This document shows positions 8,480 through 47,156 of a DNA stretch of 64,000 bases, one piece after another. The translations under genes and the position numbers were made by a program. The notes under the pieces are model-generated. The model saw nothing but the letters and a program-made list of their open reading frames with translations. It did not search any database and had not been told where the DNA came from. Origin of the DNA: Nitrosopumilus sp. (GTDB lineage Archaea; Thermoproteota; Nitrososphaeria; Nitrososphaerales; Nitrosopumilaceae). Location of the stretch: the NCBI GenBank assembly GCA_965203315.1, contig OZ241857.1, positions 768,001-832,000 of the forward strand, in the 5' to 3' direction. Numbering within the stretch: the stretch's first letter is position 1; the number at the start of each line of letters is the position of its first letter.

Positions 8480-8654
8480 GGTTCTGTTCATTTGACGGTA
8501 GTTGGCATCTTTTGCACAAAATTCTCGAAACTCTGCAAAATATGGAAACGAACTCACATCATCTATCATAAATTACTGCTGTTTTGAATCAAACATTATG
8601 CGTTCTTTGAGATAACGTCATAATGAGCTCCGCACCCGTCAATTGAACAGAACC
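8480..8654. mobile_element. MITE family B
   Basis: TIRs GGTTCTGTTCA; 8-bp TSD GTTGAATG / GTCGAATG (7/8 match). Confidence 0.9.
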
Positions 8655-21844: not shown

Positions 21845-22987
21845 TTGTCGTATGAAGTAGTTATAGCTGGTGGGAGCATATCAGGTTTGTTGTGTGCCCG
21901 TGAAGTTGCCAGATCTGGTCATTCCGTGATGGTTCTTGAAGAAGATTATGAGATAGGTACGCCTGAGCATTGTGGCGGACTAGTCAGTGTAAATGGTTTG
22001 GCAGATCTTGGCGTTGTGTTATCCTCTAGAACATTTGGATCGATCATCCAACATGCAAAGATCACGGGTCCTGATGGCAGAGGGTTTACTATATCTACAT
22101 CAAAACAAAAGATCGTAGAGGTTAGCAGACGTGAACTCGACAAACATGTAGCACTTCAAGCTCAAAGATTTGGGGCCACAATTACAACTCGTTCGAGTTT
22201 TCATGGCATGACCAAATCCGGTATTCGCACAGACAAGAGAGAGATAGAATGTGATATCTTTGTTGATGCGCGCGGTATCTCATCCTTGATACAGAGAGAC
22301 AGATCTGGAGTGATGCCGTCAGCGCAGTATGAGATTTATGCAGATTGGATAACACAGGGTTTGGTACATGTAATATTGGATCAGTCTAGATTTCCAGGAT
22401 TCTTTGCATGGATAATTCCTTCGGGAGAAGGTAGGGGAAAGGTAGGTGTTGCGGGGTATGGAATAAACCCAGCAAATGCCATGGACTCGTTTCTTCAAGG
22501 ACGCAACTTTTCAGTTATTCGAAAGATCTTTGCGCCAATATGGGTTAAAGGGCCAATCAAAAAATTCGTCAGAGGTAATACAGTAATAGTCGGTGACGCA
22601 GCTGGTCAGGCCAAACCTACAACATCTGGAGGAATCTACTCCAGCGGAATGGGAGGAGTTTACGCAGGTCTTGCTATTGCTAAATATCTAGATAGTAAAG
22701 ATATCAAAGATCTTGATCAATATCAGATTAGATGGAATAGAAAATTTGGCAATGAATTTGAACGACAATTACTCGCAAGAAAGATTCTAGAAAAGATAGA
22801 CAATAAGACAATCTCTAAATTTATCAACTCGGTCACACCAGAGATCGTCAGTACGATAACTAGTGATGATTTTGATTTTCATACTAGTGCGATACTCAAA
22901 ATGTTAGGAGTGGGTCGATCCTTAACACTTGCACGATCTCTACTCGGATCCGAGATCAAACGACGGTTCTTTTATCCATGTGAATAG
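21845..22987 (+). CDS. Geranylgeranyl reductase family flavoprotein (C-terminus altered by a MITE)
   Basis: GGSISG, EHCGGL, VGDAAGQAKPTTSGGI. Confidence 0.88.
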   Translation: MSYEVVIAGGSISGLLCAREVARSGHSVMVLEEDYEIGTPEHCGGLVSVNGLADLGVVLSSRTFGSIIQHAKITGPDGRGFTISTSKQKIVEVSRRELDKHVALQAQRFGATITTRSSFHGMTKSGIRTDKREIECDIFVDARGISSLIQRDRSGVMPSAQYEIYADWITQGLVHVILDQSRFPGFFAWIIPSGEGRGKVGVAGYGINPANAMDSFLQGRNFSVIRKIFAPIWVKGPIKKFVRGNTVIVGDAAGQAKPTTSGGIYSSGMGGVYAGLAIAKYLDSKDIKDLDQYQIRWNRKFGNEFERQLLARKILEKIDNKTISKFINSVTPEIVSTITSDDFDFHTSAILKMLGVGRSLTLARSLLGSEIKRRFFYPCE

Positions 22988-23167
22988 CTTATAAAGATTT
23001 ACTCTGATTCACGACTATTGTGTATAGCTTACGCTAGGGATGTGTTCCCATGTAAAGGACTGCGAACATATATCCATTCGAGTGGTTAACTCAGTATCAT
23101 TCTTCGTCCATTCGTCAAAATCTGTACATTTAACTTGCCGAGTGATATCTCAAACAGAACCCGTACG
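22974..23167 (-). ncRNA. Putative bridge/seek RNA of the IS110 element
   Basis: Stem-internal loop GUACG[GGUUCUGUU]UGAG-AUAUCA-CUCG-GC[AAGUUAA]A-UGUAC; the bracketed segments match the two strands of the insertion site. Confidence 0.72.
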
Positions 23168-24304
23168 TTAATGATTTCGACTACAATGTGTGACATAATC
23201 ATCCCTATCTATAAGCATATGGTACATCAATCGGAGTAGCTTGGAGGCAGTTGCAACAGTTGCCTTGCTTGTCACGCGTCTCTTTTTAATTCTAGTATAA
23301 AATTTTGTAATGTAGCTATGGGGTTCACATTTTATGTGTACATGAACTGCTTCGGTCAATGCCCATCTAAGTATTTTATCACCTTTCCTCGTTATACGTC
23401 CGTGATTTTGTTTACCAGCTGAATTGCGAACAGACGGCACTATTCCTGCATACGAACACATTTTGCGTACATTTGGGAATCTCTTGACATCTCCAATGCT
23501 GGATATTACAACAAGTGCAACAAAGTTTCCAACTCCCGGAATTGTCTTTAACAACTGCGCATCATGTGATCTCTTTACTTCTTTATGCATTTTAATATCC
23601 AACTGTCGAATCTTTTCGTCAGAGAGGTTTATCATGTCCAAATAGTTATCTATTCTATAATCCTCGAGTTTCTTCAATTCCTCTCTAAATGACTTGCTAA
23701 AACTTGAACCAGGTATTTTAATTCCATATTGCAGTAATATCCCATGTATAAGATTCTTGTATCGCGTTCTTCCTTTTACAATTATATCTCTATGTCGAAC
23801 CAACTGTTTCAATTTAACAATGTATTCACTAGGAACAAAACAAGGCGAGATATAATTTCCTCTTAAAAGATCTGCCAGTGTCCATGCATCCACCTTGTCT
23901 GTCTTTTTCTTTGATTCTGCAATAGCCTTTGTTTGATATGGATTCGATAACACTACACCAAATCCCAATTCATCTGTCAAGTATCTATACAACCAATACC
24001 ATACTGACGATGACTCCATCACACAACGTGTATTGAGTGGTGTAAACTGCGCAAAGAATTTTTTTAGACTGTCATGATCTGTGGCAACACGCTCATTGAG
24101 TAGACGCTTGCCATCCTGATCCATTGCTGCAATTTGCAGAAATCTCTTATGTGCATCTATTCCGATATAGATCATCTTGTTTTTACTTTTTGGATGGGTA
24201 ATCTGTTTGTTTGCATTTCCTCTTTTAGATCGCTTTACAGATGATCGCTTGGATCGACCTGCATGCTTTGTATCATCTGAATGTACTCTGATCGACTTCT
24301 TCAC
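23168..24304 (-). CDS. IS110-family DEDD recombinase (start may be the ATG at about 24175)
   Basis: YIGIDAHK, MES, KTDKVDA, TIPGVG, YAGIVPSVRNSAG (catalytic Ser), GRITRKG. Confidence 0.95.
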   Translation of the reverse strand: MKKSIRVHSDDTKHAGRSKRSSVKRSKRGNANKQITHPKSKNKMIYIGIDAHKRFLQIAAMDQDGKRLLNERVATDHDSLKKFFAQFTPLNTRCVMESSSVWYWLYRYLTDELGFGVVLSNPYQTKAIAESKKKTDKVDAWTLADLLRGNYISPCFVPSEYIVKLKQLVRHRDIIVKGRTRYKNLIHGILLQYGIKIPGSSFSKSFREELKKLEDYRIDNYLDMINLSDEKIRQLDIKMHKEVKRSHDAQLLKTIPGVGNFVALVVISSIGDVKRFPNVRKMCSYAGIVPSVRNSAGKQNHGRITRKGDKILRWALTEAVHVHIKCEPHSYITKFYTRIKKRRVTSKATVATASKLLRLMYHMLIDRDDYVTHCSRNH

Positions 24305-24768
24305 ATATGGTTAACTTAACGGGGGGTCGATAGTTTTCATGCAACATTCTCTAAAAATTTTACAAGTTATGAAAAATGGTTAGAACATCCATTGTAGATT
24401 ATTGCTGTTTTAAGTTGCATACAGTACGTTTCTTGAAATATCTGCATCTTAATCTTAACCCCCCGATAAGTTAAAAGAACCCAAACGACTATACAATTCA
24501 AAGAGGGATTCCACAAAAATGTCATGAACCGTCAAGAGCTAATCTATAGATTCCTTACTCGGAGCAACTAACAAATTATAGAACTTGATCGATCGTATCT
24601 TGAATGATATTCAAGACAATCCATCAAATATCATGTGATGCTCCACCACTCATCATAGTGTAAATTCAATGAAACTGTAGATCACAGATTGATTGAGGAT
24701 AACGATCTAGATTATAATCGCCTTGATCTATTGCTTCAATACATGTTATTGAACACAAGATAAGCATC

Positions 24769-46979: not shown

Positions 46980-47156
46980 GGTTCTGTTCAATTGACGGGG
47001 GTTGGCATTTTCTGCACAAAATTCTCGAAAAATTTCACAAAACATGGAAACGGCATCACCTCGTCTATCGTAAATTGCTGCTGTTTTGAGTCACATATTG
47101 TACGTTCTTTGAAATAACGTCATAATGATCTCAACCCCCGTCAATTGAACAGAACC
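46980..47156. mobile_element. MITE family B
   Basis: Long perfect TIR GGTTCTGTTCAATTGACGGGGGTTG; no TSD. Confidence 0.9.

Follow-up and report, generated by a model that had tools for sequence, protein, structure and literature searches.

The stretch of 64,000 nucleotides (nt) analysed here, referred to as the window, comes from a Nitrosopumilus sp. genome (contig OZ241857.1, positions 768,001 to 832,000). At 22974-24310, on the minus strand, it carries a 1337-bp insertion sequence (IS) of the IS110 family, IS1111 type, that splits the terminal 14 bp (GGTTCTTTTAACTT) of an IS6-type miniature inverted-repeat transposable element (MITE). This is very probably an active or recently active element of a Nitrosopumilaceae archaeon, with a guide RNA that specifies the tip of a terminal inverted repeat (TIR). 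An intact recombinase gene is followed by a strand-specific structure; its two target guides co-vary with the sequences flanking the insertion, and its donor strands co-vary with the ends of the element. A first-pass annotation of the window had proposed a downstream RNA of this kind, with two guides fitting the split TIR of an IS6-type element. The comparisons described below bear this out, and the owner of the TIR has also been found: a 365-aa open reading frame (ORF) between TIRs at C1:446434-447902 encodes a DDE_Tnp_IS240 transposase (PF13610, IS6 type; 6.6e-14, 52.7 bits against a cut-off of 27).

Guides, flanks and the RNA that carries them

Five variants of the element are present in the genome (Table 1). 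The window copy belongs to variant A, the three copies of which are 100% identical over 1337 bp. Identity to A is 93% for B, 71% for C and 67% for D, and the protein of variant E is 52% identical to the window recombinase. In each of the variants A to E the guide pair fits its own flanks. All three A copies are found in the same 14-mer, in three different copies of one MITE family with differing outer flanks (the other two at C5 ~236838-238346 and C1 ~1913593-1915099), and the variants with other guides are found at sites that those guides spell; inspection of such flanks was the check suggested at first pass. The six B copies occupy six unrelated loci whose only common part is GACC-TA-ATATC. 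The use of one guide pair at several independent sites speaks for guides that choose the sites, and against flanks that were copied in. Over 1337 positions, A and B show 95 differences. Of the 11 in their 194-nt non-coding tails, 8 are within the 16 guide bases (hypergeometric 4e-8), so that the scaffold has been more conserved than the gene while the guides were replaced.

Table 1. Guide segments of the five element variants and the flanks in which they are found (window orientation)
Variant	Copies	5' segment	3' segment	Flanks
A	3	GGUUCUGUU	AAGUUAA	GGTTCTT|TTAACTT
B	6	GAAGAUAUU	GACCUAA	AAGATA-TT/TT-AGGTC
C	1	GUCGAAUAU	AAAAAUAA	ATCGAAAAT / TTTATTTTT
D	1	GUAAUUCAA	UCACUAA	TAATTCT / TTAGTGA
E	1	UACCGGUU	GAACUUAA	GTAACCGG-TT / TT-AAGTTCC

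A few copies have features of their own. A distance of 1.7 kb separates two oppositely oriented B copies (G000:C1:231871-236217). B3 and B6 (C1:1216119-1217430) have a common left flank of >40 nt, including a tandem 14-nt repeat in B3, and different right flanks, which suggests a rearrangement between copies; B6 is without the first 25 nt of the element. In contigs of other samples (runs X2 and X4; loose end 24298) the left tip runs into …CATATGG-TTGACGAAT…, which is absent among the flanks of A to E and points to a further copy or variant elsewhere.

Both target guides of the window copy were correctly placed and scored at first pass, with 8/9 and 7/7 matches. In the orientation of the element, GGUUCUGUU, complementary to the top strand, lies 5' of AAGUUAA, which is complementary to the bottom strand. 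The 2.47-Mb genome contains 45 uninterrupted copies of GGTTCTTTTAACTT, and the three occupied copies bring the number of sites to 48; several MITE types have this sequence as their outer tip, as does the 1.47-kb element that carries the 365-aa transposase ORF. All 45 empty and 3 occupied sites carry T at the position mismatched by the guide. The claim that most other copies of the repeat would match 9/9 is thus not borne out. Where GGTTCTGTT is found as a tip in the window, the TIR is of another type, GGTTCTGTTCAATT/CATTT, and its right half does not fit the second guide. Likewise GGTTCTGTTAACTT, put forward as the optimal target, has no exact occurrence in the 2.47-Mb genome, and all three A insertions are in the T version. 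The MITE family with the TIR GGTTCTGTTCAATT/CATTT is represented in the window at 2779-2953, 8480-8654, 46980-47156, 16389 and 57937, and none of these copies carries the IS. A fixed rule of a mismatch next to the core was considered and rejected; such a mismatch is present in A and C but absent in B, E and L023.

The relationship of guides to flanks extends to other Nitrosopumilaceae. A covariance model of the RNA, R1, matches 14 places in the genome of the window and 41 places in 69 sources. Both ends of the element could be called in 30 of the 41 matches, and with one representative per guide pair these gave 25 classes. In 23 of the 25 (7 of them tied) the element's own flanks were the best match to its guides, and the observed sum was reached by 0 of 50000 permutations; a cruder first test of guides against flanks gave 0 of 20000. 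The donor loop follows the element ends in the same way. A right end CATGGAT goes with AUGGAUA in the 3' strand, and CATAGAT with AUAGAUA; 29 of 30 rows are concordant. The 5' strand has the consensus AUGGU, complementary to the left tip TAACCAT, and it changes along with that tip in L051 (ACGGU/CCGT), L053 (AUAGU/CTAT), L046 (AUGAC/GTCAT) and L063 (AUGAU/ATCAT).

Short repeats are also occupied in these relatives. Related elements in genomes G044 (L042, L021) and G019 (L043, L023, L101, L104) occupy a short repeat, each end of which carries TTATGCATA; TGCATACGGTCTAAT, within one mismatch, is present in 13 copies in G044 and 20 in G019. The G044 siblings carry the guides CGUAUGCAU and CUUGUGCAU where their own flanks differ (…ATACG vs …ATAAG), and both versions of the repeat are found in that genome.

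The structured RNA begins in the region of the recombinase stop codon (23168-23170), with the 5' strand of the basal stem P1 within the last codons of the gene. Helices P2 and P3 surround a target loop, bounded by P2 GUACG/UGUAC and P3 UGAG/CUCG, and helices P4 and P5 surround a donor loop (Table 2). Model R1 was built with five hand-drawn helices from 9 relatives, all from other Nitrosopumilaceae and none from the genome of the window. RNAalifold on a first 15-sequence MAFFT alignment, in which the target loop was misaligned, had given the donor stem-loop alone; the structure was then drawn by hand on the 9-sequence alignment of relatives and afterwards checked. In alignment A5, with 36 distinct homologues, 96.1% of cells are paired and 19 of 27 pairs show two-sided changes. 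None of 500 shuffles attained the pairing and covariation values of the structure, and slid controls gave 32-45% pairing. A stem with an internal loop on the minus strand, directly after the recombinase stop, had been noted at first pass, along with G-U pairs favouring that strand. Both are real, the first being visible by comparative analysis only: a U-G pair of P5 is found in 36/36 sequences and a G-U pair of P2 in 34/36, and these conserved pairs make the fold specific to the coding (minus) strand. The non-coding tail was recovered by nhmmer in 17 of 28 loci outside the genome of the window.

Three further candidates were set aside. An outer donor stem GGAC/GUCC, drawn by eye, was replaced by the co-varying GGACG/UGUUC. 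The apical loop UUAACCA (23083-23089), taken as a possible second donor guide, is not conserved in variants C, D and E or in the relatives, and the TATA-like CTTATAGAT at the end of the coding region, a possible RNA promoter, is not conserved in C, D and E. Two orphan RNA modules matched by R1, at C5:139561-139690 (E 3e-8) and C1:936494-936627 (E 0.004), are degenerate and without recognisable ends.

The proposed course of events starts from a DEDD/Ser recombinase gene followed by a structured RNA that would begin inside its last codons. In the first loop, GGUUCUGUU would pair with the sense-strand core and right target half, and AAGUUAA with the opposite strand of the left target half and core; by such two-strand pairing the guides would specify the 14-bp tip of the IS6-type TIR. 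In the second loop, AUGGA-UA and AUGAU would recognise the joined element ends, CATGGA-TA-ACCAT. Recombination would occur at a 2-bp core, most likely TA, left on both sides of the insertion. By homology with IS621 and ISEc11, the region would act as an RNA bound to the recombinase, with a circle as the donor.

The element, its host MITE and its recombinase

The element has sharp ends (Table 2). As proposed at first pass, it splits GGTTCTT-TT-AACTT, the outer 14 bp of a MITE TIR. The joined 14-mer is intact, as its reverse complement, at the partner TIR, and the 8-mer CAAACGAC is found directly outside both TIRs (22957-22964 and 24482-24489); the element therefore lies inside one TIR of a single MITE. 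Elements of the IS6 family produce an 8-bp target duplication. The insertion itself is sequence-specific, with a 2-bp repeat on both sides when compared with the 45 empty sites, and is without long terminal inverted repeats. Subterminal inverted repeats (ATGTGAA/TTCACAT) occupy nt 5-11 from either tip, and in relatives they change together (GAA to GC). Their length of 7 bp is at the bottom of the IS1111-subgroup range of 7-17 bp. Insertion of the IS would presumably disable that end of the MITE.

Table 2. Features of the element and its surroundings in the window
Feature	Position	Strand	Evidence or remark
Insertion sequence	22974-24310; 22975-24311 under TA core	-	sharp ends ATCCATG...CATATGG
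Left target-site duplication CAAACGAC, 8 bp	22957-22964	.	made by the MITE, not the IS110 element; recurs at 24482-24489
Split TIR, left half and core, GGTTCTT-TT or GGTTCTTT-T(A)	22965-22973	+	sequence, empty-site comparison
Core copy and split TIR right half, TT-AACTT	24311-24317	+	sequence
Rest of the ~178-bp MITE, intact second TIR at 24468-24481	24311-24481	.	sequence, genome-wide TIR matches
Right-end subterminal inverted repeat ATGTGAA, 4 nt from tip	22978-22984	.	pairs with TTCACAT
Left-end subterminal inverted repeat TTCACAT	24300-24306	.	pairs with 22978-22984
Candidate junction promoter, outward-pointing TATA-like box TTTATAA, 15 nt from right tip	22989-22995	-	conserved; promoter function putative
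Recombinase gene, 378 aa	23168-24304	-	GTG start 6 nt from left tip, 43-aa basic N-terminal extension, 335-aa core
Bridge/seek-type RNA core: basal stem P1, target-binding loop, donor-binding loop	23052-23185	-	covariance model R1, 77.6 bits, E 5.7e-14
5' target guide GGUUCUGUU	23153-23161	-	complementary to sense-strand core and right target half, 8/9
3' target guide AAGUUAA	23130-23136	-	same sense as left target half and core, 7/7
Donor-binding stem-loop, P4 GGACG/UGUUC, P5 UGAGU/ACUCG	23064-23109	-	comparative structure
Donor loop 5' strand AAGAAUGAUAC	23094-23104	-	comparative structure
Donor loop 3' strand AAUGGAUAUA	23069-23078	-	comparative structure

Two features of the surroundings may be added. 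A 380-aa ORF resembling flavin adenine dinucleotide (FAD)-dependent oxidoreductases, at 21845-22987 on the plus strand, runs into the MITE and IS, and its last codons (…EIKRRFFYPCE*) are supplied by the TIR and the IS end; the MITE thus landed near the 3' end of that gene. Just inside the TIR there is a G run, which varies from 5 to ~17 G across MITE copies (window 24320; C1:199980, 318553). A variant with one more G at 24320 is seen in contigs of three runs.

That the element encodes an intact IS110-family recombinase in an archaeon was also claimed at first pass and is upheld by Pfam matches to PF01548 (DEDD_Tnp_IS110; 1.1e-28, residues 47-193) and PF02371 (Transposase_20; 3.7e-24), and by the NCBIfam model NF033542, 'IS110 family RNA-guided transposase' (263.1 bits, cut-off 140). 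Similarity to ISCro4 and IS621 is low (E 2e-11 to 4e-13). Four acidic residues, the D in IGID, the E in MESSS and the two D in KTDKVDA, correspond in the alignment to D11, E60, D102 and D105 of IS621, and the serine of VRNS-A aligns to the serine of YES-G in IS621, with A instead of G as the next residue. The roles of these catalytic residues in IS621 are described in PMC11208158.

Transposases of the IS1111 subgroup are characterised by a length of 330-350 aa, by a relationship to the IS1111 protein along the entire length and by the motif GL-P----S(t)G; the protein here reads G-I-V-P-S-V-R-N-S-A at the place of the motif, and its 335-aa core follows the 43-aa extension. The assignment to the IS1111 type, as in the first-pass annotation, rests on the downstream non-coding region, the subterminal inverted repeats and the guide order. 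The non-coding sequence amounts to 194 nt after the gene (22974-23167) vs 6 nt before the GTG, and an RNA located downstream is given as a mark of the IS1111 type in PMC11187229 and PMC11208160.

The N-terminal extension is a recurrent feature of the lineage. No stop interrupts the frame between the left-tip GTG (nt 7-9) and the catalytic core in 29 of 30 unique elements; in 12 of the 30 there is no Met within 8 residues before that core. The extension is basic, 33-65 aa long, and a NANKQIT-like motif recurs in it. Among 101 genomes of the family, 21, from 9 of the 27 genera, have homologues of the recombinase at E <=1e-30. The nearest relatives in public records are all from Nitrosopumilus or Nitrosopumilaceae. 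More distant ones (35-41% identity) are found in Archaeoglobi, Thermoplasmata and Bathyarchaeia, and the best bacterial, plasmid-borne relatives are 36-38% identical.

Core dinucleotide, junction promoter and alternative readings

The repeat left on both sides of the insertion was first read as TT. That reading fits the window copy, where TT and TA (one base over) give identical letters; from the relatives, the shared core is more likely TA. Left junctions are all TAA|CCATATG and right junctions nearly all CATGGAT|A. With a TA core the two junctions have equal cores in every case (TA|ACCATATG, CATGGA|TA); with TT (AA in the sense strand) the cores are unequal in more than half of the relatives and in variants C and D. 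The empty site in genome G019, TGCA-TA-CGGTCTAAT, is a repeat with 20 copies within one mismatch, vs 0-1 in the control, and its occupied counterpart reads …TGCATAA|element|ACGGTCTAAT. A single TA is present in the empty site, and only the TA reading fits. It is accordingly improbable that the core is TT with a guide tuned to GGTTCTGTTAACTT and the T-type TIRs as second-best targets, even if in variants A, B and E the right end is followed by AA (sense) and another TIR type, seen 6-7 times in the window, begins with GGTTCTGTT. In the G-type TIRs the right half is different, and neither the missing exact GGTTCTGTTAACTT nor the three A insertions in T-type sites agree with such tuning.

The right end of the element may supply a promoter. 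A TTTATAA sequence with no more than one mismatch lies close to the right tip in 26 of the 30 unique elements; in 25 of these, exactly 15 nt separate its end from the tip. Were the ends joined in a circle, the distance from the TATA box to the GTG would be 23 nt. In archaeal promoters a spacing of ~23 nt from TATA box to start is expected for leaderless mRNA. From the sequence, a circle would thus join the TATA box to the left-tip GTG and could yield a leaderless recombinase mRNA. IS621 rebuilds a sigma-70 promoter across its circle junction, which drives the RNA (PMC11208160), so that the principle of a promoter at the junction is already known.

Several observations weigh against an active, RNA-guided element. 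The pair counts given for the structure lean towards it, because alignment A5 was fitted to the model, and the relatives are kin rather than independent samples. Folded as a single sequence, the 202-nt tail is not above its shuffles (minimum free energy -37.7 kcal/mol, z 0.64): 147 of 200 shuffles fold as well, and the minimum free energy structure differs from the comparative one. Rfam holds no matching family, the only matches being at chance level inside the coding region (snR34, E 3; RAGATH-30, E 0.37). The 5' guide of variant A mismatches every genomic copy of the TIR at one base (G.A), and the donor 5' strand of the window copy, AUGAU, has one A.C mismatch to its own left end, ACCAT. Among the relatives, 2 of the 25 guide classes (both L054) and single copies such as L055 mismatch their own flanks, and several others need a one-base shift or show mismatches beside the core. 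Neither a circle junction nor an empty site was seen in the contigs of four runs and the assembly, where the 16-nt junction motif is absent; contigs cannot show rare forms.

These mismatches could mean that the copy is a fossil, with variant A immobile or dependent on its siblings. The insertion is present at the window locus in contigs of all four runs (a contig over 22600-22992/22994 in each, which says that it is present and nothing more), and it may be fixed. The three A copies, however, are identical over 1337 bp, have intact 378-aa frames and are spread over three MITE copies and both TIR types of that MITE, and a fossil is unlikely. Recent or present activity remains the favoured reading.

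There is very little likelihood that the guide-like segments are flanking DNA copied in, for example by imprecise excision, with the protein finding its target alone. Sequence identity by itself does not give the direction of cause, but one guide pair serves three loci in A and six in B that are unrelated in sequence outside ~14 bp. In every case the segments occupy the same pair of strands in a conserved internal loop, one in sense and the other antisense, an arrangement also found in the experimentally proven IS1111 seekRNAs (PMC11187229), and the homologous enzymes of IS621 and ISCro4 are RNA-guided (PMC11208160). Equally improbable is a fold acting as single-stranded DNA or as a DNA site: the evidence here is all at the DNA level and folded single-stranded DNA also tolerates G-T pairs, but the fold is peculiar to the coding strand and is located where the recombinase transcript unit has its 3' end, and the guides of the family are RNAs that co-purify with the enzyme (PMC11187229; PMC11208160).

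Significance and relation to known systems

The mechanism is ordinary for a family described in 2024, and an NCBI model already names such proteins RNA-guided transposases. Among the papers listed by word-based literature searches, none described bridge RNAs of Nitrosopumilaceae or an archaeal junction promoter; some archaeal elements may be covered by the ISfinder-wide tables of PMC11208160 and PMC11187229. The value of the present case is that of a clean natural experiment, in which the guides have been exchanged across five related elements with a nearly constant scaffold and the sites are those that the guides spell. Through it, the known occurrence of two-loop bridge/seek RNAs takes in mesophilic ammonia-oxidising archaea, and a covariance model and ~25 guide-target pairs from nature become available for a lineage that Rfam does not include. 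An archaeal counterpart, TATA-based and leaderless, of the bacterial junction promoter is suggested. For the biology of the host, the landing of an IS in the ends of IS6-type MITEs concerns 48 sites in the genome. It is tentatively suggested, as a fair chance that falls short of a probability, that the IS1111-like lineage found across Nitrosopumilaceae is adapted to archaeal gene expression and to a life on other mobile elements, with a circle-dependent TATA/leaderless promoter, a basic N-terminal arm with a NANKQIT motif peculiar to this lineage, and guides retuned, between sibling copies of one genome, to IS6-type MITE tips and other small repeats.

The TIR of another transposon is reportedly the target of IS4321 and IS5075. 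Like these, the element described here is a member of the IS110 family inserted in the TIR of another transposable element, in one orientation. It differs in that its host is an archaeal IS6-type IS with its MITEs, with 45 empty and 3 occupied sites in one genome.

Closer parallels are the IS1111-type seekRNA elements ISEc11, ISPa11, ISKpn4 and ISPst6 (Siddiquee et al. 2024, PMC11187229). These also have the DEDD/Ser recombinase, a downstream non-coding region, subterminal inverted repeats, and a top-complementary segment 5' of a bottom-complementary one, the two overlapping in the target; targets differ from one IS or subgroup to the next. In contrast to those elements, the one in the window has an archaeal host, a distant sequence, a basic N-terminal extension and S-A for S-G, and is known from sequence alone. 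A clear second internal loop that matches the donor is a further difference from the elements as presented in that source.

With IS621 and ISCro4 (Durrant et al. 2024, PMC11208160; Hiraizumi et al. 2024, PMC11208158; PDB 8WT6, 9T56), the element shares target and donor loops, each of which reads both strands around a 2-nt core, the conserved D, E, D, D and S, and the use of repetitive elements as targets. In IS621, however, the RNA lies upstream, in the left end, the guide order is reversed, and the core is CT vs TA (or TT) here. The IS621 RNA is expressed from a sigma-70 junction promoter, whereas here the candidate TATA box would face the start of the recombinase, with the RNA after the gene.

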